Source of the DNA: Gammaproteobacteria bacterium
GTDB taxonomy: Bacteria; Pseudomonadota; Gammaproteobacteria; JAGOUN01
NCBI GenBank assembly: GCA_046290385.1
Contig: JBKAGM010000001.1
Span: 1,026 to 65,025 of the forward strand
Length of the DNA stretch: 64,000 bases
Direction: 5' to 3'
The first letter of the stretch is position 1; each line of letters opens with the position of its first letter. A model generated the notes under the pieces. That model ran no database searches. It was not told where the DNA came from and saw only the letters and a list, made by a program, of their open reading frames with translations. Shown here in pieces: positions 22,551-45,509 of this stretch. Position numbers and translations under genes: made by a program.

Positions 22551-22560
22551 TCGTTGATAC

Positions 22561-23679: not shown

Positions 23680-23894
23680 ATCAAATCCTGTGTAAAGTTA
23701 CATATCGTTATTATATAAAGTATACTTTGCAAGTGTGTAATTTTCAACAATAGTATCATACATAATATTATGCTATTTGTTTTTTGTTCATTGTAGAGTT
23801 AGATTTAAGAAAGAAAAATTTAGTAATAATATGTGGGATTTGATTCTTATTCTGGTTGACAAAACAGAATGAGAGCCTTAGATCGGTTTTTTAA

Positions 23895-24677: not shown

Positions 24678-24965
24678 TTTATACTCTCTATTAATTTATA
24701 CCCTCTAGTCTAACTATTTTTTTAACGACTATTCACGAGGCTTCTTTTCATTATACTTTCGAATACTAATGCTATCAATAAATGGAAAACTGCTCGATTA
24801 AGTAAAGTAGGTACTTCTGACAAGCCGCTGATATCAAAGGATGCGACAATTTTTGTCATTTTTAATGAAAAATTCCTAAAAACCCTAAAATTTAGTGTAA
24901 TACCATGATTTATACAAGCTTTTGATGTATTATACTCGACCTTAAAATAATAACTAAGAGCCGCC

Positions 24966-26516: not shown

Positions 26517-26621
26517 CCAATCTACAGGCTAAAATTTTCTATCATTTTACTGATTGTTAGCTAATTAATGCTTAGTTTATTTAATCTTTTTTAACCAAAA
26601 TTCTGTCCTAATGTCTATCTG

Positions 26622-27095
26622 GATCTGTCAAAATTGAGCGCGTTCGACATAATCTTTAACTGCTTGAATTTGATTTAGTTTTCAGTGGTAAATAATTCGT
26701 TGAAATTTTGAATTTTAGACGTGAGTATTTTGCGACGTTTAGCGCGAGTTTTATTTTTCATGTGCTTGCTATCACGATGCTTCGTTCTGCTACCAAAAAA
26801 ATTTTTGATTGCGGGAATGAGCGCAGGTTCTTTATCTGTGGTAATTTGAGCTCGAATAATCTCTGTTGTCTCATCGCTTGCTTAAAAAATACTTCTGCTG
26901 ATTTTTTCGCTAACAACATTTAAGTATAAATCTATTAATAGCCTAACCCTGCTTTGCGAGTAATTCCAGACGTCTTTTTTGAGTGGCAATGAGGACAGTT
27001 CATAATATTTTTCTTCAACAACATCATTTGTAATTATATTCCTATCAGCAACATGCTACAAATTAAAATATTGAGATGAGTTTTGACAAAACCAT
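26622..27095 (-). mobile_element. IS6-family insertion sequence remnant (copy A, internally deleted)
   Basis: Terminal IRs ctgtcaaaattgagcg (26624-26639) and gagttttgacaaaacc (27078-27093). The transposase start region is the reverse complement of 28756-28823. 26760-26940 matches the transposase 3' part and 26655-26760 matches the IS 3' non-coding end; both are also seen at 42925-43035. Confidence 0.6.
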
Positions 27096-27280
27096 AAAAT
27101 TACTCTTGTTAATGTTTGGAAAATTTTAGAGAATATTTTCCGGTTTTTCTTAAAGTAAGGTGTTTTAATGTTTTTAAAAACTAAAAAGTTAGTTGTGACA
27201 CGATTTTTAAATACAATTGTTTTAATTTTTACTGTCAGATAAAAAATATATCTATTGAAATTAATTTTTAATATTTTGAG

Positions 27281-27345
27281 AAATCGAGAGCAACTAAATA
27301 TAAATTTAAATATTTCTTAAATTTATATTTAGTTGCTCTCGATTT
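27281..27345. terminator. perfect 29-bp-stem hairpin, probably a bidirectional intrinsic terminator
   Basis: aaatcgagagcaactaaatataaatttaa / ttaaatttatatttagttgctctcgattt with a 7-nt loop, flanked by T-runs on both strands. Confidence 0.55.
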
Positions 27346-27676
27346 GTATTTTTTATAGAACTAACCGTATAATTTCAATTATATGAATAACTTCAAAAAT
27401 TATATTGAGTTAGGAGGTTTGGATTCTTTTGGTGTTTCTGAGTTTTTATGGAAATTTTCTCCTGTTTTATGCCCAAAAAATCCGGCAGCAAACCCTATGC
27501 TAAAATCTTTTACTGCCTGATGTACTTCTGGCTTAGAAGAATAGTTCTTTACTGATTTAAAAAATAATGTGAAACATTGTCTAAACATGTGGTATCCTCC
27601 TATTTGTTGTGGACAACAGATATATTTTTATATAAATTACATAAAAAAGAATGGGTAAAACTACGTAGGTAAAACT

Positions 27677-28480
27677 ATGATTATTCCTTTGCGATTACTT
27701 AATTTAGAAAAACATTCATTTATTACATCATCTGAACAAATTCGTAAAATTGCAAACCCTTTGATAATTTTAGGTATACGTCATTTTGCCTATCAGAGGA
27801 AACACAAGGATGGATCTGTTGAGCTGCTTGGAACACATCCTGACTTTACAAAAAAATTTATTGAAAATAAATTATATCGACATACGTTTTGTGGTGAAAT
27901 CGAAAATTATTCTAATTGCTATGCATTTTGGGAAGATATAGATTGTAAGGAGATAATTCAGCTTGCTAAAGAAAGTTCAAATTTAACAAACGGTATCGTT
28001 GCTACAAAACCTTCTAAGAATTATTGTGACTTTTATTACTTTGCATCCTCTCCTTCTGACTCACTTACTAAAACATTTTATATTAATAATATTGAGTTGT
28101 TGGAAAAATTTATACTATATTTTAATGAGGTTGCTAAACCAATACTTAGGGTTAGCAAAAGGCAAAGAATTTTATACCCTAACTCTAATGACTTGACATT
28201 ACTCGCCTCTAAAAACGTGTTAAATATTAATGAAAAAAGTTATAGTGTAGATAAAACCTTAGATGATTTTTATTATTTAGATTTAATGCATCTCACCAAA
28301 AAAGAAACTAAGATTTGCAAATATATTAAAAATGGATATAGCTCAAAAGAAATTGCTCAATTTGAAAAACTATCATATAGAACTGTAGAAAAGCACATAG
28401 ATCATATAAAACAAAAATTTATGTGTGATTCAATATTAAAATTGATACACAAATTAAATATATCACCAAAAAAACTCTAA
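27677..28480 (+). CDS. LuxR-family transcriptional regulator (solo type, no receiver domain)
   Basis: C-terminal LuxR-type HTH (ETKICKYIKNGYSSKEIAQFEKLSYRTVEKHIDHIKQKF); ~200-aa N-terminal putative ligand-binding domain. Confidence 0.7.
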   Translation: MIIPLRLLNLEKHSFITSSEQIRKIANPLIILGIRHFAYQRKHKDGSVELLGTHPDFTKKFIENKLYRHTFCGEIENYSNCYAFWEDIDCKEIIQLAKESSNLTNGIVATKPSKNYCDFYYFASSPSDSLTKTFYINNIELLEKFILYFNEVAKPILRVSKRQRILYPNSNDLTLLASKNVLNINEKSYSVDKTLDDFYYLDLMHLTKKETKICKYIKNGYSSKEIAQFEKLSYRTVEKHIDHIKQKFMCDSILKLIHKLNISPKKL

Positions 28481-28664
28481 TTTTTTTCTTTAGAAAATCA
28501 TAATTCAATACTGAATTAAAAAAAACTCTGGTTTCGAGTGCTGGCCATAAATTATGTCCTTGCAAAAAATGTCCATTTATAAAGTTATGTAACTTAATTG
28601 ATCGATTCAGAATTGTATCAAAATATTTATAAATATTAAGATATCTTTAAAATATTTCTTCTAG

Positions 28665-29610
28665 GGGTTTTTTCAAAACTCAGCCCAACATTTTAATTTG
28701 TAGCGTGTTTCTGATAAGAATATAATTACAAATGATGTTGTTGAAGAAAAATATTATGAACTGTCCTCATTGCCACTCAAAAAAGACGTCTGGAATTACT
28801 CGCAAAACAGGGTTAGGCTATTTGCAATATCGTTGTTCAGACTGCGGTAGGCAGTTTAATGAACGTAGCGGCACCCCACTGAATTTTATAGAGCATCCTA
28901 CCGAAGTGGTCATGATTGCCATTCATTACTATTATCGCTTTAAAGTTAGCCTGGATGATGTGGTGGAGCTCATGATGATGCGTGGATTTCATATGAGTCA
29001 TCAAATGGTTCATAACTGGACCAAACGTTTGGTGTTGACTTAGGGTTAAAATGTCATACAAAACGTAAAAGATTTTCTGGGAACAAGTGGCATGTTGATG
29101 CAACGTATTTACGTATTGAAGGTCGTTAGTGCTATTTCTACAGAGCGATAGATAAAGCAGGTTATTTAGTGGATGTCTACTTAAGTGATGTGCGTGATCA
29201 AAAATCAGCAGGAGCCTTTTTTAAACAAGCGATAGAAACAACAAGGATTATTCCAGTTCAAGTTACGACAAATAAAGGGCTTGTGCTTACTCTCGCAATT
29301 AAGAGTGTTTTTGGTCGTAAACGTAGCATCATGATAGTAAGCATATGAACAACTCTTGAGTAGCCCTATCGTGCTATTTAGTCACGCTATAAAGTTACAA
29401 AATTATTCAAAAACATTTTCAATGCCTTAATATTTTATAAGGCTATTGAAGAAGCATGCCGATTATTTCGCATGAAAATAAAACACCCACCACAAGCCCT
29501 AGAATACTCATGTAAAAATTTAAAATTTCAAAAAACACATTACCAAAGAAAACTAAACCAAGTTCAAGTGCTTAAATATTGCTCCGAAGGTGCAGAGTTT
29601 TTACAGAACC
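28665..29610 (+). mobile_element. IS6-family insertion sequence, full length (~945 bp)
   Basis: imperfect terminal IRs ggttttttcaaaactcagccc (left) and gcagagtttttacaga (right, reverse complement); internal IS6-type transposase gene. Confidence 0.7.
28732..29347 (+). pseudogene. IS6-family DDE transposase with an N-terminal zinc finger; disrupted
   Basis: WHVDATYLRI...YFYRAID...VDVYLS matches the IS26/IS6 core; a frameshift near 29040 and an in-frame TAG near 29126 break the reading frame. Confidence 0.7.
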
Positions 29611-29946
29611 TTATCGTCTAAAGATATGTTTCTTTTTCTTATTATGTAATGTGAAGAATAAATAATATTATAAGTAGGAGTCGTTACAAGTGAAATATAA
29701 AAATCAGTATTTTTTACGGTTATCTTTAAAAAATAAATAAATATAATTTGTATTACCTAAGTGAAAAACTACTTTTATAGAAATAAAAGTTTATATATGA
29801 ATTTATAATGGAGTTTGTTATGAATGTTGATTTGGCAAGAAATTTTCAAAGCTTCACTAAAACTAGAAATTTATTGAATTTCATGGGATATCCTAGTGCT
29901 GATTCCAAAGATTATAGTTTTTCTGAAGAATTTAAATCAGGGGGGC

Positions 29947-30786
29947 ACTATGGAAGCTTTCAAGTTGAATAATCTTAAACTTATTGAGGAAGCAATTAGT
30001 TTATCAAAACAATACAATATTGATATTGATCGATTTATTGAGTGTCGAGGAATCATGCGCTTACCTGATTCAGAGATTAGGGGAATGGTTGATTTATGTG
30101 CGGAATCTAAAAAAGGATTAGTAATGTCAATCGGTCCACGAGCTACAAATGATATAGGAGCTTTTTCATTTACTGAAAATGGTAAGCGTGTTGGTTATCG
30201 TAATCGAGGAATGGAAAATATTATCTATGCATTGGAAGAGGTGCAGCGCGGTATAGAACTAGGGGTTCGTGGATTTTTGTTATATGACGAAGGGTTATTG
30301 TATCTATTAAATAAAATGCGTGAGAAAGATGTACTTCCTAAAGAGATATCTTTCAAATACTCAGTGCATGCTGCCTGTAGTAATCCAATATCTGCAAGGT
30401 TACTAGAAGATAACGGAATTGATAGTATTAATTTAATGCCTGATGTTGATTTAAATATGTTATCAGCTTTTCGTAAAGCAGTGAGTGTCCCATTAGATCT
30501 ATTTTCAGATACTGCAAAAGCTGCTGGCGGGTTTATTCGAACTTATGAAGTAGCAGAAATGATACGACTTGCTTCACCGGTTTACTTAAAATGTGGTCCT
30601 GTTTCTCAGCCTCAGCAAAATCATTTGCCTTCGCCAGTGGAGTTAGAGGAAAGAGTAAAGCAAGCACGAAATGTGGTTGAGCATATTCAAAGATATTTAC
30701 CAGAAGCAAAACGTGTAAGCTCTAATGAATTTACATTAGCACTCCCAAAAACAGTTCTAGAATCCATCCAGAAAAAGGTTGCTTAA
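29947..30786 (+). CDS. hypothetical enzyme, possibly TIM-barrel-like; first gene of the cluster
   Basis: ~280 aa from MEAFKL; no confident family assignment. Confidence 0.35.
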   Translation, partial: TMEAFKLNNLKLIEEAISLSKQYNIDIDRFIECRGIMRLPDSEIRGMVDLCAESKKGLVMSIGPRATNDIGAFSFTENGKRVGYRNRGMENIIYALEEVQRGIELGVRGFLLYDEGLLYLLNKMREKDVLPKEISFKYSVHAACSNPISARLLEDNGIDSINLMPDVDLNMLSAFRKAVSVPLDLFSDTAKAAGGFIRTYEVAEMIRLASPVYLKCGPVSQPQQNHLPSPVELEERVKQARNVVEHIQRYLPEAKRVSSNEFTLALPKTVLESIQKKVA

Positions 30787-32476
30787 GGGGAAAAAGAAAA
30801 TGAAAAATTGGAAAGAATCTTGGAATGATAATTCTCGAACCTTTAAAAAGTATTGTGCTCAGCAAAAGCTTAAATTCCAAAAAGGATTGGAGTGTCCTGA
30901 GAAAGCACAGAGAGATGTATTAGATGATATTTTATCAATCACGCAGGCAAGCGAATTCGGACGAGAACATAAGCTTAAGCAAGTTAAGGATATCAAATCA
31001 TTACGTAATAATGTACCTATTCGTAGTTATGATCAATATAAGCCTTGGATTGAGCGCGAAATTTTAGCTAAAGGGGGCGTGCTCAGTACTGCCAAATTAG
31101 TGAGATGGCTAAAAACGAGTGGATCTACGGGGAGCTCTAAGAAAATCCCATATTCAATTCATTGGATGGAGAATTATCGTAGTCAAGCACTAGGAGTCTT
31201 GTGGGCAAGCTATTTGGAGGCAGCACCAGAGATATTATCTCATCCATATGCAATACTGGATACACAAACGATTCGTGAAAAAATCTCTAGTAATCTAAAT
31301 GGGTTACCATATCAAGGAATTACCAACAGAAATCCAATTTTAAGTAATCTTGATTGGATGCCTCCTTGGGCTAACGCACCGTGGATGACAGATGATGTTC
31401 CAAATGGTTATGAAAATCGAATGTATTATCGTCTAAGATATTTTCTTGGTCAAGATCTTCGTGTAATTACTGCCATTAATCCAAGCACTCTTGTAGCGAT
31501 GCATTTACATTTAAGAAAGTTTTTACCAATGCTTGTTAAAGAAGTACATAACGGCACATTTATAGGAAAAAAAATCTTTGTACCAAATTCCGAATTAGCA
31601 GAAAAAATATCTAGTTTTACAGAAAGTAGTTCGCTTACAGATATATGGCCTAACTTATCACTCATTACTTGTTGGACAACAGCATCTGCCAAATTATATA
31701 AACCACAGCTTGATTTAATATTCCCGGGAGTAAAAGTATTGCCATTTATGACATGCGGTACAGAAGGAGTAGTGACACTTCCAGCTGATTTAAAAAATCA
31801 AGTAGGAGTGTTAGCCATAACGCAAGGTTTTTATGAATTTATTCCGGCAGAAATAGATTTAGAGAGTTGTTTAGGAAAAGATTCATCTGTTAAAACGTTG
31901 TTATTCAATGAGCTTGAGTTTGGTAAGGAATATCATTTAATAATGTCACAAGCAAATGGTCTTTATCGATTAGCAGTTGGAGATGTTTATAAAGTTATAG
32001 GTTTTGTTGGAAGCGTTCCTCGTATTGAATTTGTTCGTAGACATGGAACTTATTTTTCATTTACAGGTGAAAAAATTACAGAGTCACAAATGCTTGATTC
32101 TGTAGAAAGTGCAATAATCCATTCTAGTAATAAAGTTGGTCTATTTATGTGTTTTCCTGTATGGGGTGATATACCTTATTACAGAATATTAATCGAAACA
32201 GATTCATATAATGATGTGGTGGCTTCTGTAGAAATGGCCAGATTAATTGATACTAAACTATCGGAGATTAATGAAGAATATCAAAGTAAACGTGCAAGTC
32301 ATCGACTAGGAAAGGTAGAAGTATCATTTATTAAAACTGGTGTAATCAATAACTATTTAGAAGATAAAAAGAGTGGTGCCAACGCAACACAATATAAATA
32401 TAAACCTCTCCAAACAGATTTTAATTTGTGTAGTAAGTTGCTATCTGCAAGTAACTTCCAGGAGGTTATGTTGTGA
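30779..32476 (+). CDS. GH3-family adenylate-forming acyl-acid amido synthetase
   Basis: 565 aa; adenylation motif TSGSTGSSKKIPY, analogous to the GH3/JAR1 TSGTT..K.IP motif. Confidence 0.7.
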   Translation: MLKGKKKMKNWKESWNDNSRTFKKYCAQQKLKFQKGLECPEKAQRDVLDDILSITQASEFGREHKLKQVKDIKSLRNNVPIRSYDQYKPWIEREILAKGGVLSTAKLVRWLKTSGSTGSSKKIPYSIHWMENYRSQALGVLWASYLEAAPEILSHPYAILDTQTIREKISSNLNGLPYQGITNRNPILSNLDWMPPWANAPWMTDDVPNGYENRMYYRLRYFLGQDLRVITAINPSTLVAMHLHLRKFLPMLVKEVHNGTFIGKKIFVPNSELAEKISSFTESSSLTDIWPNLSLITCWTTASAKLYKPQLDLIFPGVKVLPFMTCGTEGVVTLPADLKNQVGVLAITQGFYEFIPAEIDLESCLGKDSSVKTLLFNELEFGKEYHLIMSQANGLYRLAVGDVYKVIGFVGSVPRIEFVRRHGTYFSFTGEKITESQMLDSVESAIIHSSNKVGLFMCFPVWGDIPYYRILIETDSYNDVVASVEMARLIDTKLSEINEEYQSKRASHRLGKVEVSFIKTGVINNYLEDKKSGANATQYKYKPLQTDFNLCSKLLSASNFQEVML

Positions 32477-33378
32477 TAGAAAACAAACGAAAAAAATCGT
32501 TTAATTATTCAGTTTGCTCAATTGAATCAGACGGGGCCAAGCTAGCTTTACATAGTTGGGTGCCAGAAAAACCAAAAGCAATGGTTTATTACATACACGG
32601 TATTCAAAGCCATGCTGGTTGGTTGTTTGAAACAGGTTCTTATTTTGCAGAAAAAGGCATAGCAGTTTTTGTGGTTGATCGTCGTGGTTCTGGGAAAAGT
32701 GAAGGAATTCGTGGAGATATAGGAAACCATTTTCAATTACTCAATGACTATTTAAAAATATTAAGAATTATTCGATCATTATATATTCAATTACCACTTA
32801 CACTGATTGGGCAAAGTCTAGGAGGTTCTATTTTGTCAGCTTTATTGGCATTGCCAGATTATGATGTTGAATATAACAAAGTAGTTTTTTGTGCATCGGC
32901 ACTTGGAAAAAAGCATAATGAGGTGAGTGCAATTGATTATGCTCGAGTTATATCCGAAAGTAGCATGGATCTCATTGATATCCCTATCAAAGATGAGGAT
33001 TTCTCGGATCAAAGTAAGTATTTAGATTTCATAAGTTCTGATCCACTACTCTATCGAAAGATAACTAAAAGATCACTAGCAAGTTTGTTGTTAATGGAAA
33101 ACCTTTATCTATCGAAGCCTGGGTTACTATCAGAAAAGCAAGCTGTTTACGTTTGTCCAGAGGAAGATCCAATCGTGAATTTGGATTATTCAATTTCAGT
33201 GTTCCAGAAATTAACAAATGAGCATGGAGAAGTAAAAAGGTTTCAAACTTATAAACACTACCTTTGGTTTACTGATCAATCAATGTTAGTTCATCAGTGG
33301 ATAGTTAACTGGATTTTGTCTACTAAGAAGGAGGTGTTGCATGAAGATTTCGATATATCAAGTAGTACCGCAGCTTAG
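32473..33378 (+). CDS. alpha/beta-fold hydrolase (lysophospholipase/thioesterase-like)
   Basis: HG oxyanion motif (HGIQSHAGW); nucleophile elbow GQSLGGS. Confidence 0.7.
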   Translation: MIENKRKKSFNYSVCSIESDGAKLALHSWVPEKPKAMVYYIHGIQSHAGWLFETGSYFAEKGIAVFVVDRRGSGKSEGIRGDIGNHFQLLNDYLKILRIIRSLYIQLPLTLIGQSLGGSILSALLALPDYDVEYNKVVFCASALGKKHNEVSAIDYARVISESSMDLIDIPIKDEDFSDQSKYLDFISSDPLLYRKITKRSLASLLLMENLYLSKPGLLSEKQAVYVCPEEDPIVNLDYSISVFQKLTNEHGEVKRFQTYKHYLWFTDQSMLVHQWIVNWILSTKKEVLHEDFDISSSTAA

Positions 33379-34516
33379 TGTCGCTTTTGGGCACGCAGAA
33401 ACTGTAAGAAAGAATGCTGAAAGCATTGTCATTAGTGTTGAATATAAAGGTATAAGAGCAATTGGTGAGTGTGCGCCTAGAGAATATGTTACAGGTGAAA
33501 CACTTGACCGAGTTTTTAATACGCTCCAAATTATACCATATAAGAATATTTTAAGAAGTATAGACCAACCAACCTTGATAATGGCAATTGATGCATTTAT
33601 TAAGTGGGACTTAAATAAGCTTACATCTTCTAATAATGCAACGTGTGCACTTGAACTGTTATTTTTGGATTGGCTTGGTCAACGATTTAAAATCCCCGTG
33701 TGTGAAATACTTTACAAATTCTATTTCGGCGCTTCAAAATTAAAGGAAGATTTAGTTTTTAAGACTAGTCAGGTATTGGATTTAGCGATAGATGTGAAAT
33801 ACTTTTTAGAAAATAGAGCTCCTTTCCATACAGTTAAAATTAAAGTTGATGGAGATTTAGAAAAAAATATAGAAAGAGTTTCAAAAATCAGAAGCGCAAT
33901 TGGTAAAGATGTGCCGATTATAGTCGATGCAAATATGTCTTGGACATTATCAGAAGCAATTAGACAAATAAATTATTTAAAAAAATACGATATTTCATTT
34001 TTTGAAGAGCCATTAAAAAAAGGTGCTTTTAAAGAATACGCTATTTTAAAAAAAATAACAGAATTAAAAATATTGCTTGATGAGTCAGTTTGCTCAGCTG
34101 ATGATGCATTAGTGGCAATTCGATTAAATGCGTGTGATGCATTCAACGTTCGTATTTCTAAGTGTGGAGGTATTCGAAATGCTCTAGATATAGTCCGAAT
34201 CGCGCGTATCAATAATCTTCAATTTCAAATAGGGGCCCAAGTAGCTGAGGTTGGGCCGCTAATTGCTGCAGGTAGACATTTGCGAAGTATTGTAGATGAT
34301 GCCATAACATTTGAAGCTGGACAGCCAGAACGTTGGTTTAGAGATTATTTGGTAACCCCTATGCCCCTTGTGGATAGAAGTACAAATTTAACTGGATTCT
34401 TACTAAAACCAGGTTTGGGAGTTGAACTAACAAGGTTCATAAAAAGTTGTTCAGAAAAGATGGCATTATGGAATGATAAAAGCAAACGATTTACTGAGGA
34501 GCATAAAATAACATGA
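33341..34516 (+). CDS. enolase-superfamily enzyme, MR/MLE subgroup (dipeptide epimerase/OSBS/N-acyl amino acid racemase-like)
   Basis: KIKVDG (KxK), DANMSW, FFEEP and LLDES metal-ligand motifs in the canonical order. Confidence 0.8.
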   Translation: MKISIYQVVPQLSVAFGHAETVRKNAESIVISVEYKGIRAIGECAPREYVTGETLDRVFNTLQIIPYKNILRSIDQPTLIMAIDAFIKWDLNKLTSSNNATCALELLFLDWLGQRFKIPVCEILYKFYFGASKLKEDLVFKTSQVLDLAIDVKYFLENRAPFHTVKIKVDGDLEKNIERVSKIRSAIGKDVPIIVDANMSWTLSEAIRQINYLKKYDISFFEEPLKKGAFKEYAILKKITELKILLDESVCSADDALVAIRLNACDAFNVRISKCGGIRNALDIVRIARINNLQFQIGAQVAEVGPLIAAGRHLRSIVDDAITFEAGQPERWFRDYLVTPMPLVDRSTNLTGFLLKPGLGVELTRFIKSCSEKMALWNDKSKRFTEEHKIT

Positions 34517-36243
34517 ACCGCGTAGATAAGTATAATTCTGATTTATTAGTTGATTTATTGAAGTCTCATAAAATAGATTTTATTACGGCTAATCCAGGAT
34601 CAACGATTAGAGGATTATATGACTCTATCATCAATGATAAGAGCGATGAAAATATAGAATTAATACTCTGTTGTCATGAAGAAATTAGTGTTGCTCTTGC
34701 GCATGGATATGCAAAAATTTCTGGTAAACCGATGGTGGTTTTGTTACACGGAAATATCGGGCTTTTGCATGCAAGTATGGCAATTTTCAACGCTTGGGTA
34801 GATCGAGTGCCTATGATAATTATAAATGGTATAGGTCCTATGGCTGTTGAAAAAAGAAGACCATGGATTGATTGGATTCATACATCACAGAATCATGCTA
34901 ATGTATTACAAGGTATTGTAAAATGGCAGGATCAACCTGCTAGCTTTCCAAGTGTTGTTGAGTCTTTTAAAAGAGCATATAAGCTTACTAATATTTCACC
35001 TCAAGCACCAGTATATCTCACTATTGATGCAGCGGTTCAAGAAGAAATAACTGCTGAGTCGGATTTAAACTTGCTTCCATTGAAATTGCCCCTAAATGGT
35101 CAAGCTGATGAGCACTCATTACGGCTCTTAGCCAAAAGTTTATCTTTAGCGAGCAATCCTCTCATAATAGTAGATCATATGGGTAGAGTGCCTGAGAGTA
35201 TTAACTATCTGATTGAAATAGTCGAAGAGTTACAAATACCTGTTATAGATTGCGGAGGTCGGTATAATTTTCCAAATACACATCCACTATGCTTAACAGG
35301 TATGCCGTCAGAATTCTATCAAGAAATAGATTTTGTTTTAGCAATTGACGTTGCAGATCTGTCAGCAGCGTTACAAAAATTTTCCAAAGATATTGAAATT
35401 TATCGAATAGACCTTAATGATTCATTGGTTAGCAGTTGGGTAGCAGATTATTGTGAAAATATTGATGTTAAATGTCATATAAATTCTGACAGTAGCGTTA
35501 CACTTCCGGTTTTGCTTGATTACTGTAGACAAATCATTCCCAAAATTAATTTATCAAGTTTGCAAAATCGAGGCGATGTTTGGAGACAGAGACATTATGA
35601 TTTACGTGAACAATGGATTCAAAAATCAAAACAATTGTCGCGTGGTAAGCGACTTTCAGTTTTGTCTGTTTTTGATAAGTTTTGGAATGTAATTCGATTT
35701 GAAGATTGGGTAGTAGTCAATGATGCTAGCATTCCTATGGGTAAGCAGTTAAGGAAAATATGGAAATTTGAGCATGATGGTTGCACTATTGGAAATAGCG
35801 GGGGTTGTGGATTGGGATATGGTATAGGTGCCTCCATTGGAGCAGCTTTAGCTTTAAAAAACACGGGAAAAATTGCCATTGGTTTTCAAGGTGATGGAGA
35901 TTTTTTGTTTACACCTAGTGCATTATGGACAGCCGCGCATTACAAAGTATCACTTCTTATTGTCATTATGAATAATGGCGGATATCAGAATACAGCTAAA
36001 CATGCGCATGAAGTTTCACAACAACGATCTAGATCAATGAAAAAAATTATGATTGGTAACGCTATTACAGATCCTAATGTAAATTATTTTAAACTTGCAA
36101 ATTCTTTTGGAGTTGCTGCATTACCTGCAATCGAGAAAATAGACGAAATTATTCCATCAGTACGTAAAGCCATAGATTATATTAAAGAAAATAAAAAACC
36201 ATTTTTATTAGAAATTAAGGTGGGGGATAAATATGAAAATTAA
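34513..36243 (+). CDS. thiamine-diphosphate-dependent enzyme of the ALS/PDC/Xsc family
   Basis: 576 aa; TPP motif GDGDFLF...NNGGY; three-domain length. Confidence 0.75.
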   Translation: MNRVDKYNSDLLVDLLKSHKIDFITANPGSTIRGLYDSIINDKSDENIELILCCHEEISVALAHGYAKISGKPMVVLLHGNIGLLHASMAIFNAWVDRVPMIIINGIGPMAVEKRRPWIDWIHTSQNHANVLQGIVKWQDQPASFPSVVESFKRAYKLTNISPQAPVYLTIDAAVQEEITAESDLNLLPLKLPLNGQADEHSLRLLAKSLSLASNPLIIVDHMGRVPESINYLIEIVEELQIPVIDCGGRYNFPNTHPLCLTGMPSEFYQEIDFVLAIDVADLSAALQKFSKDIEIYRIDLNDSLVSSWVADYCENIDVKCHINSDSSVTLPVLLDYCRQIIPKINLSSLQNRGDVWRQRHYDLREQWIQKSKQLSRGKRLSVLSVFDKFWNVIRFEDWVVVNDASIPMGKQLRKIWKFEHDGCTIGNSGGCGLGYGIGASIGAALALKNTGKIAIGFQGDGDFLFTPSALWTAAHYKVSLLIVIMNNGGYQNTAKHAHEVSQQRSRSMKKIMIGNAITDPNVNYFKLANSFGVAALPAIEKIDEIIPSVRKAIDYIKENKKPFLLEIKVGDKYEN

Positions 36244-36949
36244 TGTATTGCAGCATATAGGTGATAATAGTACATCTTTAGAAAAAGTTGTAGTAGTGAT
36301 CGATCAATATAGGGCTAGCTCTACTATTGTTACGGCGCTAGCTAATGGCGTTCAAAAAATAATACCATGTCTTTCGCTAGAGGAAGCGTTAGCAAAAAAA
36401 GCGCTTAGTGAATATAAAAATTTCTTAGTCTTGGGTGAGCAAAATGCTAGAAAATCAGAAAAGGCCTCACTAGGTAATTCACCTCTTCCATTCACTGTAA
36501 AAAATCACGGCATTAAAGAAATTTTAATGGCAACTACAAATGGAACAAAAGCATTGAAGCGCGCACAACATGCTCAAAAAATTATGTTGTGTAGCTTTTT
36601 AAATCTTTCCGCCATAGCAGAAAAGTTAATAAAATGTGATTCAGATTTTACAATTCTTTGTTCAGGCTCTAAAGGAAAGTTTTGTTTAGAAGATGTAATC
36701 TGCGCAAGCCTATTGATACAGCGTATTCAAAAAAAAGAAAGTTGTTTTTTTATAGATGATTTTACACGACTTGTTGCGGCATTAAATGAAGATCAGCAAT
36801 CTTTATTATGTGAAAGTAAATCATATAAGAAGTTAAAGAGTTTGGGATTTAATAGCGATTTAGACTTTTGTGATCAACAAGATTTGTATGAATCTGTACC
36901 GGTTTATTTAAAAACAGGTTTTATCAAGGAGTGTAAAAATGATAGGTAG
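36233..36949 (+). CDS. ComB-family (2-phosphosulfolactate phosphatase-like) phosphatase
   Basis: 238 aa; VVVIDQYRASSTI and LGNSP motifs match ComB-family signatures as recalled from memory. Confidence 0.5.
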   Translation: MKINVLQHIGDNSTSLEKVVVVIDQYRASSTIVTALANGVQKIIPCLSLEEALAKKALSEYKNFLVLGEQNARKSEKASLGNSPLPFTVKNHGIKEILMATTNGTKALKRAQHAQKIMLCSFLNLSAIAEKLIKCDSDFTILCSGSKGKFCLEDVICASLLIQRIQKKESCFFIDDFTRLVAALNEDQQSLLCESKSYKKLKSLGFNSDLDFCDQQDLYESVPVYLKTGFIKECKNDR

Positions 36950-38486
36950 ATTAAAAAATAAAAAACGAGAAGATGAAGTTCTGCTTTTAAGTGAAGGGCA
37001 AGGTGTAGAGGAGGATAGGGATCAGAATGATAGTAATGGAGAGTTAAGCGCCCATGGCATGTTTCTTGATTTAATTATTAATGGTTGGACTTTTAGCGCT
37101 GTTCGTATTCCTGATATGGCAGTAGAAATCATTGAGGGAGCTATTTTTTCCCGATTAGGACGAAATTATCTTGCAGCTGATGGTTTTATAGTTATAGAAC
37201 ATCGTGTATTTGCCACTACTGCATTAGGCGTTATTTTTGGTCTTGGTAATCTGCTAGATGAAGTAAAAGATGACTCTGTGCGACGTGGCCAAGTTTTTCG
37301 GCAAATATTTATTTTAGCGTTAGCTTTGAGTATCCCTGTCACCGCACTTTTAGCAATGAGCGAGCCAATTTTGATAGCACTTGGACAAAATAGAGATGTT
37401 GCTAAGATAACAGGTAATTTTTATATCGCTGCGCTAGTAAATACACCATTTTATATAGTTTTTTCTTCACTGCAACTATTATTCTTGACGTTGGGCCGTT
37501 CTGGTACTGGACTCAAGCTCAACTTTATCAACAATATTTTGAGTGTCATATTGAGCGGATTGCTTGCTCTTGGTTCAGGAAGCATTCCCCAGCTAAATGA
37601 ATGGGGAATGGGATTGGGTAGAAGTCTTTCGTCTATTATTATGGTGGGTGTAATTTCAATTGTACTCTACCGTGATAGTGTACAGCGAGAATCTCTCTTC
37701 AGCTGGACTCTTGGTGAAACTCAGTTTTTCCGCATGTTAAAACTAGGGCTGCCATATGGTGTTCAAGTTGGATCAGATTTTTTAATGCAATATGTGTTGG
37801 CGATATTGCTAGGTCGTATTGGAAAGAATGCATTAGCTGAAGCACGTGTTGCTGATATGGTCTATATGATTCCATTTGTGATGTTAGCTAGGTCGCCTCA
37901 AATCGTCGCGGCTCATGCTAGAACCGCAAAAGAAAATCAGAATCAAGGATATATAAAAAGATCAATGTTAATCAGCAGCTTAACTAATGGAGTGGCAGTG
38001 GGTATATGGATATTGATAACGAGTATTGGCGCAGATCCATTATTAAAGTATGTATTTGATTTGGATTCTCATAAAGAAAATGATTCCAAGATTATTTCTG
38101 GAGCTAAATTTTTAATGTTTATGACAGGGATTACTTTATTATCAGAGGTGGTTCGTTTTGTTTCAGGTTCTGTGCTTAGAGGGCTTGAAGACACAGTATC
38201 ACCTATGATTAATAGTATTGTTGTTCTTGATATCTTAGGGATAACCGTGCTGCTGACAGCTGCGCTGGGTTTTAATTTGGATGAAGAGGCGTTATATGGT
38301 ATTAGGGCAGCTATTATGTTTCTCGCATCTATGACGATTACAGCGTATGCAACACATATAGTAAAAGGGATACCACAGTTAAGCCAGTCAAATTATGCTA
38401 TCTGGAACGAAAATAATTTGGCTCCTTTAGTGTTAGAGAACGTAGTTGAAGATGATATAGAAGAAGGAGTTAAAAATGGTCAATAG
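36939..38486 (+). CDS. MATE-like polytopic efflux transporter
   Basis: 515 aa; ~12 TM helices in two halves; ~50-aa N-terminal cytoplasmic extension. Confidence 0.45.
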   Translation: MIGRLKNKKREDEVLLLSEGQGVEEDRDQNDSNGELSAHGMFLDLIINGWTFSAVRIPDMAVEIIEGAIFSRLGRNYLAADGFIVIEHRVFATTALGVIFGLGNLLDEVKDDSVRRGQVFRQIFILALALSIPVTALLAMSEPILIALGQNRDVAKITGNFYIAALVNTPFYIVFSSLQLLFLTLGRSGTGLKLNFINNILSVILSGLLALGSGSIPQLNEWGMGLGRSLSSIIMVGVISIVLYRDSVQRESLFSWTLGETQFFRMLKLGLPYGVQVGSDFLMQYVLAILLGRIGKNALAEARVADMVYMIPFVMLARSPQIVAAHARTAKENQNQGYIKRSMLISSLTNGVAVGIWILITSIGADPLLKYVFDLDSHKENDSKIISGAKFLMFMTGITLLSEVVRFVSGSVLRGLEDTVSPMINSIVVLDILGITVLLTAALGFNLDEEALYGIRAAIMFLASMTITAYATHIVKGIPQLSQSNYAIWNENNLAPLVLENVVEDDIEEGVKNGQ

Positions 38487-39204
38487 CTTGAAAGATAAAA
38501 AAATTGTCGTAATAGGTGGGAGTTCTGGTATTGGGTTTGAGACAGCAAAGTTATTTGCAGAATCGGGATCAAATGTTGTAATAGGTGGGCGAGATCAAGC
38601 AAAACTTAATCGTAAAAAAATAGAGCTAAGGGGAAACGTTGAAGCATTTTCAATTGATATTATGAATCTTGATTCTGTTCAGTTTTTTTTTGAGCGTGTT
38701 GGAAAATTTGATCACCTACATATTCCAGCAAGTAATATGAAGACCGGTAGTTTAAAAGATTTTGAAATTGCACTGGCAAGGCAATCTTTTGATAGTAAAT
38801 TTTGGGGTCCATATCAAGTTGCTAAAATAGCTTTGTCTTATTTATCTGACGTGGGCTCAATGACTTTTTTTTCTGGTGCGTATAGTCAGCGTCCTATTGC
38901 TTCAGGAGCTGCGATTGGATCAGCAATTAATAGTGCTATTGAAGGACTCGTTAGAGCTCTTGCGGTTGAATTGGCGCCTATTCGTGTTAATGCTATTTCA
39001 CCAGGACTTACAATGACTGAGCGATTTACTGAGAATTATTCACCAGAAGCACTAAAAGCATTAACAGAAAATTTTTCAGAGCACTTATTAATTAAGCGGC
39101 CAGCTGAATCAACAGAGGTTGCGTTAGCTGCTAAATATTTAACTGAGTGTTCTTATGTGACTGGTACAACATTATTTGTTGATGGTGGGTTGTCTTTACA
39201 TTGA
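38476..39204 (+). CDS. short-chain dehydrogenase/reductase
   Basis: IGGSSGIGFETAK Rossmann motif. Confidence 0.75.
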   Translation: MVNSLKDKKIVVIGGSSGIGFETAKLFAESGSNVVIGGRDQAKLNRKKIELRGNVEAFSIDIMNLDSVQFFFERVGKFDHLHIPASNMKTGSLKDFEIALARQSFDSKFWGPYQVAKIALSYLSDVGSMTFFSGAYSQRPIASGAAIGSAINSAIEGLVRALAVELAPIRVNAISPGLTMTERFTENYSPEALKALTENFSEHLLIKRPAESTEVALAAKYLTECSYVTGTTLFVDGGLSLH

Positions 39205-39210
39205 TGAAAA

Positions 39211-40047
39211 ATGAAGGGGAAAATTATGAAAAATAGTATAGTTATGAATGGTGGTACGCTTCAGCATTTATCTTTGATAAATGCTCTTAAGGTAACAAAG
39301 GATTCAGGTTATGATGGCTATGGTGTATGGTCAAACCAAATTTGCTCATCATTCGGCCATCATAATCAAGATGAATATTGTCAAATAATCATAGAAAGTG
39401 GGTTATCTATTCCTGAGATAATTTGGTTAAAGCCTTGGTTATATGTGAATGGTGAAGAGAAAAAGCAATCTATAAGTGATATTGAAAATCTATGCCAAGT
39501 TGCTAAGAAAATCAATGCTAGGATTATTACTGCACCAACTTATGGAGTATCGAATGATATTCAGTTAGCACAAAATAACTATAAAGATTTTTGTGATATT
39601 GCAGCCTGCTATGAATTAAAAGTTGGGTTGGAGTTTGTACCCATTTTTACTATTGATAGTTTGCTTTCAGCTTATGCATTGGTGCAAGCAGTAGATAGAA
39701 ATAATAGCGGAATCATTATTGATACTTTCCATGTTTTTAAAGGGAGCACTTCGCTAAGCGATATACAAAAAGTACCTGTTGAAAAAATGTTGTTGGTTCA
39801 TTTGTGTGATTTTAATGATGAAGATCCTTGTGGTGATATTCTATTTGAAGCTCGAAATAAGCGATTATCTCCAGGTAGAGGTGTATTTGATCTGCAGAGC
39901 TTTATTAGTGAAATGACAATACATGGTTATGAAGGATCATATTCGTTAGAAGTGTTGAATCAAAATAATCGCAATATAAATTCAGAAAGTTTTTCAATTA
40001 GTATCTTAAAGGATGCTAAAAATATTTTAGGTGTGAAAAGGAGATAG
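39211..40047 (+). CDS. xylose-isomerase-like TIM-barrel protein (sugar-phosphate isomerase/epimerase family)
   Basis: GLEF, DTFH and HLCD metal-ligand motifs. Confidence 0.65.
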   Translation: MKGKIMKNSIVMNGGTLQHLSLINALKVTKDSGYDGYGVWSNQICSSFGHHNQDEYCQIIIESGLSIPEIIWLKPWLYVNGEEKKQSISDIENLCQVAKKINARIITAPTYGVSNDIQLAQNNYKDFCDIAACYELKVGLEFVPIFTIDSLLSAYALVQAVDRNNSGIIIDTFHVFKGSTSLSDIQKVPVEKMLLVHLCDFNDEDPCGDILFEARNKRLSPGRGVFDLQSFISEMTIHGYEGSYSLEVLNQNNRNINSESFSISILKDAKNILGVKRR

Positions 40048-40051
40048 AAGC

Positions 40052-41695
40052 ATGAAAGAATTAGAGAATAAACAATTAGCTAAGCGTATTCGTGAGTCAA
40101 TTATTGAAACAGCTTCAGAAGGGGGATTTCATTTTTCTTCAAGTTTGGGTGTAGTAGAGCTCGTTATAGCTCTATACCGAGTATTTGATTTTGAGAAGAA
40201 TCAAGTTGTTTTCGATGTGGGGCATCAGCGATTTCCTTATTTAATGTTAAGAGATGGTCATTTCAATGTGCCTCACTATGAAGATTACAGCATGTTTATT
40301 TATCCTGGTTTTGCCGGGCTTTCGGCAGCATCAGCTGAAGGGCTATCAGTGAATGACCCTGAAAATAAAGTTATTGCTGTTATTGGAGACGGTTCACTGA
40401 CTTGTGGTGAAGTATTTGAATCATTAAATAACATTGGAGCTCATCAAAGTAATGTTTTGGTGGTGCTCAATGAAAATGGTCAATCGATTGTTGATAATGT
40501 TGGTGCACTTAGCGATGGAAAGTCTGTAAGGCAGTATGCGGAATCTTTAAAGTTTGAATATATAGGTACAGCGGATGGTCACAATACAGAACAGTTAGTT
40601 GAAATATTGGAAGGTCTCAAGCAAAAAAAGCATCCTGTGTTTTTGCATGTAATTACTCAAAAAGGTAAAGGTTATTTGCACTCTGAATCAAATCCAGCTT
40701 TATATCACCGTCCGACGACTTCATTTGATGTGCATACAGGTAAGATTTTGCCAAATCAAGATGTTGCAAAGGCAATGATGGGGGAATCGCTAGACATATT
40801 ACAGAAAAAAAGTTTAGCTATGTTAGAAAAAGGTGAAAGTTTATATTTAATCTCTCCTGCCTGTCCTTTATTTCCAAAAGTTGCAGAAAAATATCCTAAA
40901 AACGTTTTTGATACTGGGATCAGTGAACAGCATTGTATGACTTTTTCTACAACACTGGCAGCAAAAGGAAATAAGGTGATTTGTACAATCATAGCTCCAT
41001 TTTTATCGCGTTGTTATAGTCAAATTTTAGACCTTGCACATCAAAATGCACCATTAGTTATCTCTGTTCCTATGATGGGAGCAAATGCTCTTGGTTCAAC
41101 TCATCAAGCTGTGCATATGTTAGGCGCCCTGAGGCAAATTCCAAATTTATCAATTGTACATGCAATCAATATGAAAGAATATGAGATGTTGTTAGATGAG
41201 ATGTTGGAAGTCGGTAAGCCTGGTATTCTGTTTGTTCCTAAAGAGAATGTGCCATGTGAGGTGGTTGATAATTATGAATATGGGAAGGGGTTTATTTTAA
41301 GAGAAGGATACGCCGCAACGATATTGCCTATTGGCTCAATGTTTTCGATTGCAATTCAATTAGCAGAAAAATATGAGGGCATCGAAATTATTAACCCAAG
41401 GTACTTAAAACCATTGGATTTAGAATTGTTGTTTTCTAGTATTAAAAAAACTGGAAGGTTGTTAATTTTAGAGGATGGACTTAAAGTGGGTGGTTTAGGT
41501 GAAGAAGTAATATCGAAAATATTTGCGTCTATGCCGCATGTTCATTGCAAACATATTGGGTACACAAGCTTATTTCCTAAATATGAAGCATATGATAAAG
41601 CTATTAAAGAATATGATTTTTCATTCGTACGATGTATGAATACACTATCAGAGCTTTTGCAACTAGAAAAGCGAGGTTATCTCAAGTGTGCTTAA
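40052..41695 (+). CDS. DXS-like transketolase-family TPP enzyme
   Basis: GGFHFSSSLGVVEL...DVGHQ and IGDGSLTCGEVFESLNNIG...VLNENGQSI align closely with the 1-deoxy-D-xylulose-5-phosphate synthase signature regions. Confidence 0.8.
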   Translation: MKELENKQLAKRIRESIIETASEGGFHFSSSLGVVELVIALYRVFDFEKNQVVFDVGHQRFPYLMLRDGHFNVPHYEDYSMFIYPGFAGLSAASAEGLSVNDPENKVIAVIGDGSLTCGEVFESLNNIGAHQSNVLVVLNENGQSIVDNVGALSDGKSVRQYAESLKFEYIGTADGHNTEQLVEILEGLKQKKHPVFLHVITQKGKGYLHSESNPALYHRPTTSFDVHTGKILPNQDVAKAMMGESLDILQKKSLAMLEKGESLYLISPACPLFPKVAEKYPKNVFDTGISEQHCMTFSTTLAAKGNKVICTIIAPFLSRCYSQILDLAHQNAPLVISVPMMGANALGSTHQAVHMLGALRQIPNLSIVHAINMKEYEMLLDEMLEVGKPGILFVPKENVPCEVVDNYEYGKGFILREGYAATILPIGSMFSIAIQLAEKYEGIEIINPRYLKPLDLELLFSSIKKTGRLLILEDGLKVGGLGEEVISKIFASMPHVHCKHIGYTSLFPKYEAYDKAIKEYDFSFVRCMNTLSELLQLEKRGYLKCA

Positions 41696-41717
41696 GTTAA
41701 TATAAGGAGAAGTATAT

Positions 41718-42938
41718 ATGAAAATTAAAATAAAATTTAAAAAAACGTCAATAATGGTTTTATTATTTTTCGTTCCATTTTTGATGGGGATGGGCGTGGA
41801 TTTATATGTCCCTTCATTGCCAGCTATCGCTATATTTTATCAAACTGATCCACATTGGGTACAATTAACAATAGGTCTTTACATGTTGGGCTATGGAGTT
41901 GGGCAGCTTTTTCTTGGGGTTCTTTCAGATAGTTTAGGACGTAAGAAAATAATGTTGATGAGTGGTATTTCATATGTCATTATTAGTTATGTTGCGAGTG
42001 TTTCGCCTGAGGTTTGGTTTTTAAATCTAGCGCGATTTATTCAAGGTTTTGGTATTGCTGGATTGGGAGTTGCTGTTCGTGCTGTTGCAAGTGATTGTTT
42101 TAATGATCTAGATTTAACAAAAGCATTAACATGCTTTTCCATGAGTTGGGCTTTAGGCCCAATTATAGGACCATTTTTAGGAAGTTATTTACAACATTTC
42201 TTTGGCTGGAAGGCAAATTTTTATTTTTTCGCTATCTATGGTGCAATTATTACATTTTATATTGTGCTCTTTATACCTGAGACAATTGAAACGAGGCATC
42301 CATTACATCTTAAAATACTTTATAATAGTGCTAAGGTAATATGTAAAAATAAAACTTTTATTGCTGCATCGCTAATTGCTTCTTTAGTTTATTCAGTTTT
42401 AGTCTTATTTAATGTCGTTGGCCCATTTTTAATTCAGAAGGTGCTTCATTATACAGTTATCGACTATGGTCGTTTTGCGCTGATTCTTGGTGTTGCCTAC
42501 TTTTTGGGTAATTTTAGTAATCGGATATTGGTTAATTACTGTAGTCCTGTACGAATAGTATATATTACTCTATTGTTGAGCTTGGTTATATCTATAGCAA
42601 TGTTACTTTTAGCATTGATAGTAGGGTCTTGCATCGTTGTTGTATTGGCTCCAGTCTTCTCGATTTTTTACTTATCAGCAATGATGTTGCCTAATATGGT
42701 TTCAAAATCAGTTGGAATGTTTCCCAAGCAAGGAGGGACTGCAAATGCTATTTGTGGGACAGTCGTCGCATTAGGTGTATTTATCATGTCTAGTTTTGCC
42801 AGCAGTTTAAAAATACACTCACAAATGCCACTAGCGATTATGTATATGGTTATCCTATTTGCTTCACTGATGATATTTTCAGTGTATATCAAAAAAAATG
42901 ATTCTGTCAAAACTCAGTGCGCTCGACTCAATCTTTAA
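41718..42938 (+). CDS. MFS drug-efflux-type transporter (Bcr/CflA-like); its 3' end runs into an IS inverted repeat
   Basis: 406 aa; 12 TM; the last ~12 codons and the stop lie within the IS6 terminal repeat at 42903-42920. Confidence 0.75.
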   Translation: MKIKIKFKKTSIMVLLFFVPFLMGMGVDLYVPSLPAIAIFYQTDPHWVQLTIGLYMLGYGVGQLFLGVLSDSLGRKKIMLMSGISYVIISYVASVSPEVWFLNLARFIQGFGIAGLGVAVRAVASDCFNDLDLTKALTCFSMSWALGPIIGPFLGSYLQHFFGWKANFYFFAIYGAIITFYIVLFIPETIETRHPLHLKILYNSAKVICKNKTFIAASLIASLVYSVLVLFNVVGPFLIQKVLHYTVIDYGRFALILGVAYFLGNFSNRILVNYCSPVRIVYITLLLSLVISIAMLLLALIVGSCIVVVLAPVFSIFYLSAMMLPNMVSKSVGMFPKQGGTANAICGTVVALGVFIMSSFASSLKIHSQMPLAIMYMVILFASLMIFSVYIKKNDSVKTQCARLNL

Positions 42939-43578
42939 GTGCTTGAACTTGATTTAGTTTTTTGTGGTAAATAGTTCGTTAAAATTTTGAATTTTAGACA
43001 TGAGTCTTCTGTGACGTTTAGCGCGTGTTTTATTTTTTATTAGAAGTAATTGTCATATTCTTCGAATGTCGTACAAAATATTAATACACTAAAATCGCTC
43101 TGTAGAAATAACACCGAAGATCATCAATACGTAAATACGTTGCATCAATATGCCATTTGTTCCGAGAAAACCCTTTGCGTTTTGCGCGACATTTTAACCC
43201 TAACTCAACACCAAACGTTTGGGTCCAGTTATGGATCGTTTGATGACTCATATGAAATCGGCGCATTATTATGAGCTCTACCACATCATCCTGGCTGACT
43301 TTAAACCGATAATAGTAATGAATAGCGATCATTACCATTTCGGCAGGATGCTTGATAAAATTCAGTGGGGCGCAGCTACGTTCATTAAACTGCCTACCGC
43401 TCAGTCTGAACAACGATATTGCAATTAGCCTAACCCCGTTGAGTAATTCCAGACGTCTTTTTTGAGTTTCAATGAGCACAGTTCATAGGTTTTTTCTCCA
43501 ACATCTTTATTTGTGATTATATTCTTATAAGCAACACGCTACAAATTACAATGTTAGACTGAGTTTTGACTAAGCCAG
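42903..43578 (-). mobile_element. IS6-family insertion sequence remnant (copy B, internally deleted)
   Basis: IRs ttctgtcaaaactcagtgc (42903-42920) and gagttttgactaagcc (43561-43576). The transposase N-terminus and part of the core (43081-43479) are in one frame with no frameshift. Confidence 0.65.
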
Positions 43579-43988
43579 TAAATCTACATGTAGTAATACA
43601 TTAGCGCCTATGAAAATAATTATCATTCGTTAGTAACAAATTAAAATCATGTGAAGTTACTCACAAATAAAAAAGAACGTAAACTATTTTCAGGAAGTTA
43701 TAAGTTAATTCGTTGAACTTGACATAAGATTATTCAATTTCATACTGGTTTCCAGCAAGATTGCTTGCAATAAATAAGCATGCTTTTTTTTGATCAGAGA
43801 TGTCAGTTGATTAAACCGAGTTAACCAGCCCGATTTCTCCAAGGGGTATATACGTAGTATTTACTTATTGATGGTTTTAATGAATATCCCGTATATTTAT
43901 ATCCTAAAACTTTTTCCTTTTTTGGAAGTAGACTCAATATTAGTAAAAATTCAAATTTTTTTGAATAAAGATTTAAGGGTAAAATGCC

Positions 43989-45497: not shown

Positions 45498-45509
45498 TTT
45501 AAAAACGGA

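Follow-up and report, generated by a model that had tools for sequence, protein, structure and literature searches.

Decayed IS6/IS26-family insertion sequences around a LuxR regulator and a biosynthetic cluster in an uncultured gammaproteobacterium: a possible fossil of a pseudo-compound transposon

Introduction

Insertion sequences (ISs) of the IS6 family move via cointegrates, a route that leaves direct IS repeats around the incoming DNA (PMC7986276; PMC6807381). The best-known products are the pseudo-compound transposons and translocatable units of IS26 and IS1216 (e.g. Tn4352, and Tn7086 with IS1216E), in which two direct IS6-family copies enclose a passenger (PMC7986276, PMC6807381, PMC13055272). 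The terminal inverted repeats (TIRs) of the family start with GG and contain TGT and CAAA motifs (PMC7986276), and Harmer and Hall (2019) describe E-DH---K as its transposase signature (PMC6807381). Here we analyze a 64-kb stretch (the window) of contig JBKAGM010000001.1 from a gammaproteobacterial genome assembly (GCA_046290385.1), in which three related IS6/IS26-family copies, designated A, F, and B, all lie at or inside a unit composed of a LuxR/GerE-type regulator gene and a biosynthetic cluster.

Two of these copies, A and B, bracket the unit in direct orientation, and the third, F, lies inverted within it. All three are decayed, and their sequences are mosaic in their similarity to one another. 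We tentatively read the arrangement as the remains of an IS6-type cointegration, and weigh this origin against three others.

Results

Three related IS copies at one regulator-cluster unit

Repeat finding over 24–46 kb of the window recovered two direct-repeat families that join 26.6–27.1 kb to 42.9–43.6 kb, and five inverted pairs that join 28.67–29.53 kb to both of these regions. A three-way alignment resolves A, F, and B into a single element type. The TIR consensus GGTTCTGTCAAAACTCAG, with ≤3 mismatches allowed, occurs at exactly six sites in the window against a chance expectation of 0.08, two in each copy and none elsewhere (Table 1).

Copies A and B are direct repeats with a start-to-start distance of 16.3–16.5 kb. 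Copy F, inverted relative to both, sits between the regulator gene and the operon, and together with A forms a pair of inverted copies around a 1572-bp segment carrying the regulator. The regulator gene begins 583 bp downstream of copy A, and copy B abuts the last cluster gene: the final 13 codons and the stop codon of its open reading frame (ORF), which encodes an MFS exporter, fall within B, placing this copy exactly at the 3' end of that gene.

An earlier reading made from the letters of the window and its ORFs (the sequence-only reading) had proposed three copies of one IS, to be verified by alignment, with A and B as direct repeats ~17 kb apart. Three related elements of one type are indeed present, with coordinates within 1–3 bp of those first proposed, and the direct-repeat geometry is confirmed at the distance measured here. 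The wording "one IS" is right only loosely: the lineage is shared, but pairwise identity ranges from 71 to 95% by segment.

Table 1. Coordinates of the IS copies, the enclosed unit, and the flanking features in the window (IRL and IRR, left and right inverted repeats)
Feature	Coordinates	Strand	Description
Copy A	26621-27093	-	IS6/IS26-family relic, 473 bp, two internal deletions, both TIRs kept; IRR GGATCTGTCAAAATTG at 26621, IRL GGTTTTGTCAAAACTC ends at 27093
IRL-proximal arm of A	26937-27093	-	95% identical to F 28666-28822, inverted
Copy F	28666-29610	+	IS6/IS26-family pseudogene, full length, 945 bp; TIRs GGTTTTTTCAAAACTC and GGTTCTGTAAAAACTC
Copy B	42900-43576	-	IS6/IS26-family relic, 677 bp, one internal deletion, both TIRs kept but mutated; IRR GATTCTGTC, IRL GGCTTAGTC (conserved TGT broken)
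LuxR/GerE-type regulator	27677-28480	+	267 aa, 27% GC; between A and F
Hairpin	27281-27345		Perfect 29-nt inverted repeat, then T-run; between A and regulator
Cluster gene 1	29820-30786	+	No Pfam above threshold, weak Peptidase_U32-like match; ~64% identical to orthologues, most conserved cluster gene
GH3-family ligase	30779-32476	+	
Alpha/beta hydrolase	32473-33378	+	
Enolase-superfamily enzyme	33341-34516	+	NCBI MFN3233822.1
Thiamine diphosphate (ThDP)-dependent enzyme	34513-36243	+	
ComB-family protein	36233-36949	+	2-phosphosulfolactate-phosphatase-like
Accessory cluster part	36939-42938	+	MATE exporter, short-chain dehydrogenase/reductase (SDR), xylose-isomerase-like TIM barrel, DXS-like transketolase, Bcr/CflA MFS exporter
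SulP-family transporter	24966-26516		Left neighbour of copy A
ACE365_00245	43989-45497		Right neighbour of copy B, 502 aa
Type IV secretion set	7332-16043		VirB4, VirB5-like, VirB6, VirB8, VirB9, VirB10, VirB11
Tn3-family transposon	52216-58146		~5.9 kb, bounded by 114-nt inverted repeats, 92% identical
Tn3-family TnpA	52365-55538	-	Intact, 1057 aa

Logan contigs assembled independently from the same run (SRR22269038) match the window at 100% over 14966–26982, 27580–28702, and 30072–47944, and reproduce both junctions of B together with the left junctions of A and F. These data bear on whether order and orientation between the repeats might have been mis-joined in the metagenome contig. The short-read assembly breaks at 26982 (in A), 28702 (just inside F), and 30072, and the junctions at 27093 and 29610 fall outside the retrieved Logan contigs, as such an artefact would allow. 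Three of the six junctions and both sides of B are nevertheless recovered at 100% in the independent assembly, and each copy has its own substitutions and deletions, which argues against one collapsed repeat. We regard an assembly artefact as very improbable.

An IS6/IS26-family lineage of intermediate size

The transposase reconstructed from F and B matches the Pfam family PF13610 (DDE_Tnp_IS240, E = 9.6e-24) and has an N-terminal zinc ribbon. Searches with tblastn led to plasmid-borne transposases annotated as IS6 family, of which the top match is only 44% identical, and a large protein collection contained hundreds of intact relatives, mostly 264–268 aa long and 64–76% identical; one of these, from a Coxiella metagenome-assembled genome (MAG), bears the name IS6 family transposase. 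One intact relative, P0002, has the E-DH---K signature (IEQDHRGIK; NNRIEQDHRGIKSRYK), of which, in the window, F has only a decayed form (TLE*PYRAI*) and A and B have lost all by deletion. On JGI metagenome contigs, most intact relatives measure 938–954 bp, with termini GGTTCTGTCAAAACTSAG that fit the GG, TGT, and CAAA motifs of IS6-family TIRs and a single transposase ORF spanning the element; an exact DNA pattern taken from the IS core gave 0 matches in metagenome contigs. The Pfam match, the tblastn results, and the intact 268-aa relatives bear out the family assignment made in the sequence-only reading.

Copy F (945 bp) and the 268-aa transposases of its relatives exceed the usual IS6/IS26 range of 700–890 bp and 213–254 aa, and the greater length is due to a ~30-aa N-terminal CxxC...CxxC zinc ribbon. 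On these sequence features, the element is placed in the IS6/IS26 family as an IS of intermediate size class.

Decay of all three copies

The state of each copy was read by aligning the P0002 protein to the window and inspecting translations. Copy A keeps element positions 1–157, about 505–685, and the last 138 nt, with transposase remnants of aa 1–22, 138–198, and 242–265; the internal deletion previously attributed to it is real but consists of two deletions. In copy B, ~483 nt at the start of the element and ~194 nt at its end survive, and aa 133–222 are lost. Its aa 28–132 are readable in a single frame, in agreement with the earlier description of an internally deleted copy with an intact N-terminus-to-core junction, and its zinc ribbon contains a stop and two frameshifts. 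Translations of F, which had been called frameshifted and stop-containing, show exactly this: aa 1–90 lie in one frame and aa 90–244 in another (frameshift near 29022), with an in-frame stop at EGR*CY and more stops and indels across the E-DH-K catalytic region.

The TIRs bear 1–3 changes each, some at positions conserved across the clade; at B, GA replaces GG in the IRR (inner end) and AGT replaces TGT in the IRL (outer end). Such changes are as expected from neutral decay after inactivation. All three transposase genes are disrupted and the window has no fourth copy, so the proposed IS decay is borne out: no autonomous element remains here, and the block is no longer able to transpose. It would also be hardly excisable by homologous recombination, since the longest perfect run shared by A and B is a single 27-nt stretch.

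A 132-aa ORF is called within copy B (43081–43479, minus strand). It starts with GTG, comprises the helix-turn-helix (HTH) part of the transposase (aa 28–132) and a short tail, lacks the zinc ribbon and the catalytic domain, and is probably non-functional.

Mosaic identity among the copies

Copies F and A are 95% identical over their first 157 nt, compared with 71–78% in other segments (Fisher p = 4e-8), and F and B are 86–89% identical over the first ~480 nt, compared with 71–75% at the 3' end (p = 2e-5). A and B are 84% and 86% identical over their two shared ends, and their divergence is uniform over both (Fisher p = 0.62). The three copies are mutually closer than any of them is to 69 metagenomic relatives (70–76% nucleotide identity). 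Identity of ~95% is the usual convention for isoforms of one IS in ISfinder practice. By their pairwise distances, A, F, and B are best described as one genome-resident lineage, mostly far below that convention. The 3' end shared by A and B, which had been taken as non-coding and as a mark of the same IS species, is related in the two copies but only 86% identical, and it partly encodes the C-terminal 24 aa.

Within the similar arms of A and F lies an 89-nt perfect inverted match (26953–27041 in A, 28718–28806 in F), although the two copies are otherwise 21–29% divergent. This similarity suggests that A and F have exchanged sequence by gene conversion or recombination. The Logan short-read assembly breaks ~30 nt into A's copy of the match. 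A perfect match of 89 nt would suffice for gene conversion or for inversion by RecA. One speculative consequence, which we consider improbable, is that the inner arms of the two copies persist, or were made alike again, as a 157-nt inverted repeat around LuxR only, and that the 1.57-kb segment could be a RecA-dependent invertible cassette. The IS relics would then have been co-opted as a switch flipping the regulator of the GH3/enolase/ThDP cluster in a probably host-associated bacterium.

Over 102 shared codons, F and B show a synonymous divergence (pS) of 0.26 and a nonsynonymous divergence (pN) of 0.10, a pN/pS of 0.37. Neutrality was judged with a simulation that accounts for transitions and transversions, in which the neutral median ratio was 0.72 and only 1.7–1.9% of runs were as low as the observed value. 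A first Nei-Gojobori ratio of 0.33 had suggested a stronger departure, and was weakened by the transition-aware simulation to the present ratio with p about 0.02. The synonymous excess indicates that F and B diverged in part when the elements still worked, and that these two copies do not stem from one event. The coding sequence common to A and B is too short for a pN/pS test; their distance is about that predicted by the decay of their own termini, and this pair may have had a common origin and then decayed neutrally.

The enclosed unit belongs to an older cluster family

The stretch from F to B is occupied by a single operon of 11 genes, all in the same direction. Its recurring core, consisting of a U32-like protein, a GH3 ligase, an alpha/beta hydrolase, an enolase-superfamily enzyme, and a ThDP enzyme, is also found in a Logan contig, in GCA_964559315.1, in a gammaproteobacterial MAG, and in Serratia plymuthica, Vibrio mangrovi, and Streptomyces. 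A ComB-like phosphatase follows the core in all loci except that of Streptomyces, where the cluster adjoins AfsA/TetR genes. The closest enolase-family relative of MFN3233822.1 is 52% identical at the protein level. A full-text literature search returned no description of a GH3/enolase/ThDP cluster; the Legionella "legionellol" GH3 cluster was considered as a match and rejected, being of a different, fatty-acid type. The family is widely but patchily distributed and apparently uncharacterised.

LuxR/GerE regulators are frequent at these loci, with seven at one of them (L006) and several paralogues of the window's LuxR at the cluster of the gammaproteobacterial MAG. The operon of GCA_964559315.1 is immediately preceded by a GerE regulator gene, and its product can be aligned to the LuxR of the window along 264 residues (26% identity, E = 3e-25), including the non-HTH part. 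A homologous regulator upstream of a homologous cluster elsewhere indicates that the regulator-operon linkage is older than the IS copies, which makes F a later insertion into a unit that already existed. The genes enclosed by A and B match the extent of the cluster in GCA_964559315.1, from the GerE regulator to the MFS/SDR genes.

Comparison with its orthologues reveals a frameshift in cluster gene 1. This gene has an ATG at 29820 with an upstream GGAG resembling a ribosome-binding site, and orthologue residues 2–40 correspond to 29841–29954 and residues 31–318 to 29926–30783 in another frame, so that the break falls at about 29945–29955, beside a G6 run. This position is outside the Logan contig, which starts at 30072, and the frameshift may be real early pseudogenisation or a sequencing error. 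A role of gene 1 as ComA (phosphosulfolactate synthase) was considered and dismissed, as the protein has no Pfam or NCBIfam match and only weak Peptidase_U32 similarity; its ~300-aa product also has no PDB relative by sequence or profile.

We found no excess of IS-derived promoters at the IS ends (25 predicted vs 19.2 ± 4.8 in shuffled sequences), and no gene remnants in the spacers beside the IS copies.

Target duplications are uninformative in this lineage

The sequence-only reading proposed looking for 8-bp target-site duplications at the outer ends of A and B. We compared 15 flank pairs in both orientations with offsets of ±3 bp, inversion signatures included, and found no 8-bp duplication at any single copy, at any pair, or as a reverse-complement inversion pair. 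The best score, 6/8, came from two A-rich flanks that do not form a duplication pair (0.22 expected by chance over 30 comparisons). As a control, we examined intact relatives with located ends, and only 3 of 26 had flanks matching at ≥6/8, which makes the test uninformative. Copies of this lineage, or the assembled contigs that hold them, normally show no duplications, and their absence neither supports nor refutes an IS-bounded module; the failed search at the ends of A and B carries little weight.

Discussion

A possible cointegrate origin

The IS6-type geometry, the concentration of all three copies at one unit, and the position of two of them at its natural borders favor a fossil of a pseudo-compound-transposon-like arrangement, formed by IS6-type cointegration. 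We hold this origin tentatively, as a possibility somewhat short of probable. A circular molecule or replicon segment with one IS copy and the preassembled unit (LuxR, operon, and exporters) would have fused into the locus by IS6-type cointegration, a reaction in which the incoming DNA always ends up flanked by a pair of direct IS copies, in this case A and B. Copy F would have inserted later, inverted, between regulator and operon, and deletions, frameshifts, and point decay, extending to the TIRs, would then have killed all three copies. That F is the least deleted copy and that F and B diverged under partial purifying selection fits a separate, later arrival of F. Both the fusion and this order of events are what we infer from the present anatomy.

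Set beside this scenario, the earlier proposal of an IS-mobilised acquisition of the LuxR-plus-cluster segment keeps its direct-repeat bracketing, but acquisition as one unit is not demonstrated. Its module picture also changes: the copies are not recent duplicates, as their pairwise identities and the F-B pN/pS indicate, F was inserted inside an older unit, composition is unchanged at B, and the 3'-end argument for one IS species rests on 86% identity.

Several observations weigh against a cointegrate origin. A and B differ by 14–16%, so their common origin is something we infer rather than see. No 8-bp target duplication surrounds the block or any copy, which is weak evidence in view of the control. 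The GC content at third codon positions (GC3) is 0.20–0.28 in the cluster genes and stays low (0.21–0.29, in four genes) for ~6 kb past B, with no compositional step at that copy; in the left flank, from VirB4 to SulP (7.3–26.5 kb), it is 0.25–0.42. Around seven other clusters, examined by called genes and Pfam for all and by tblastn (E ≤ 1e-10) for five, with ~10 kb of flank, the DNA contained no IS6 transposase. No related genome with the block present or absent was found, the SulP homologues lying at 43 non-syntenic loci and ACE365_00245 being an ORFan. Finally, the block lies amid other mobile DNA able to deliver it, namely the VirB type IV secretion system (T4SS) genes and the Tn3-family transposon.

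Much of this evidence would also suit a history of independent hits, in which the cluster became resident by another route and IS6 elements inserted there on three separate occasions, or caused adjacent deletions, in permissive AT-rich intergenic DNA at its borders and between regulator and operon, leaving the orientation of A and B coincidental. Copies that are 5–29% divergent and mosaic, homologous clusters without IS6 elsewhere, the missing target duplications, and the unchanged composition at B all agree with it, and the partial purifying selection between F and B calls for at least two arrivals in any case. Such a history is nevertheless somewhat unlikely: all three ISs lie at one 16-kb unit, two of them <600 bp from its natural ends, which would be surprising for unrelated events; a simple insertion in the IS6 family itself requires cointegrate formation and resolution (PMC7986276); and A and B have diverged evenly, to the extent that decay alone would produce.

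The neighbouring mobile DNA raises a further alternative, that the cluster arrived with adjacent conjugative T4SS DNA as part of a larger mobile element and that the IS relics reflect later IS-mediated rearrangements (deletions, inversions, or recombination between copies) instead of the vehicle of delivery. The VirB4–B11 set at 7332–16043 upstream, the Tn3-family element and a HicB-like gene in its neighbourhood downstream of the block, and a SulP neighbour that wanders over Chlamydiae, Coxiellaceae, and Legionellales without synteny are consistent with this idea, as are the chimeric sequences of A and F, whose 89-nt perfect match indicates recombination between copies. We consider it unlikely, because no relaxase or coupling protein was found among the window ORFs scanned, nor any integrase or attachment repeats delimiting an integrative element around the block, the sole recombinase belongs to the Tn3-family element, and there is no reverse-complement target duplication of the inversion type. 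An Rfam scan of the whole window gave no match, and no tRNA gene or attachment-like repeat delimits a larger element. Across these alternatives, the cointegrate origin remains the reading that we prefer, tentatively.

Flanking genes

The SulP transporter gene has 43 homologues in species-representative genomes (45–83% identity), mostly in Chlamydiae, Coxiellaceae, Legionellales, and unclassified Gammaproteobacteria, and no neighbour gene besides SulP is common to the window and any of these 43 loci. The closest relatives (70–83%) are scattered over Chlamydiae, Simkaniaceae, Coxiellaceae, Legionellales, and Thiotrichales. This distribution suggests repeated horizontal transfer of SulP among host-associated bacteria, and hints at a host-associated lifestyle for the window's organism.

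On the other side, the protein of ACE365_00245 has no homologue among 5.8 billion proteins. It is the first of three consecutive AT-rich genes (43989–48143; 502, 716, and 151 aa) without Pfam or NCBIfam matches. Exact-protein look-ups found the window proteins only in sample SRR22269038.

The T4SS genes are followed, on the opposite strand, by a sugar-nucleotide-like operon (HAD, PRK-domain protein, nucleotidyltransferase, and class II aldolase). Besides its transposase, the Tn3-family element carries a YhcG/DUF1016 PD-(D/E)XK nuclease and a tyrosine recombinase, and its flanks show the pentamers TACTT and TACTA, a 4/5 match.

Implications

If the cointegrate origin is correct, a mechanism best known for the spread of resistance genes would also have brought an entire regulator-plus-biosynthesis unit to an uncultured gammaproteobacterium, a recipient whose neighbouring genes are common to Chlamydiae, Coxiellaceae, and Legionellales. 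The IS lineage itself is a ~950-bp zinc-ribbon form between the described IS6 size classes. The arrangement will hardly surprise a specialist, and the cargo cluster is the more interesting part of the locus.

Comparison with known systems

With IS6/IS26 elements in the strict sense (bacterial clades I–VI; Harmer and Hall 2019), the lineage shares GG-start TIRs with TGT and CAAA motifs, an IS240-type DDE domain, and, in its intact relatives, E-DH---K. It differs in size: the element is ~945–954 bp with a 268-aa transposase, against a described range of 789–880 bp and 213–254 aa. The clostridial zinc-finger clades, at over 1200 bp and 340–450 aa, are in turn much longer.

Like the IS6-family miniature inverted-repeat transposable elements (MITEs) of 227 and 336 bp (PMC7986276), A and B have kept their ends and lost the catalytic core. 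Unlike them, both retain hundreds of bases of decayed coding sequence and mutated TIRs, and each occurs once, with no amplification in the window.

A and F resemble the products of IS26-mediated inversions in being inverted around a short segment, here of 1572 bp with the regulator. The reverse-complement 8-bp duplication of such inversions is absent, however, and identity confined to 157 nt of the inner arms looks more like gene conversion or homologous exchange than like a fresh duplication.

The nearest counterparts remain the pseudo-compound transposons and translocatable units of IS26 and IS1216, with which the locus has in common two direct IS6-family copies around a passenger. Direct orientation and bracketing are present, and the two copies are "the same IS" at the lineage level only, at 84–86% identity where those of IS26 and IS1216 units are about 100% identical. 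A functional transposase acting on intact ends, as in IS26-type units, is absent, and no other copy in the window could supply one; A and B are internally deleted, lack a transposase, have some mutated TIRs, and show no 8-bp duplication. In place of resistance genes, the passenger here is a 15.8-kb regulator-plus-metabolite cluster, with a third, inverted copy inside it.

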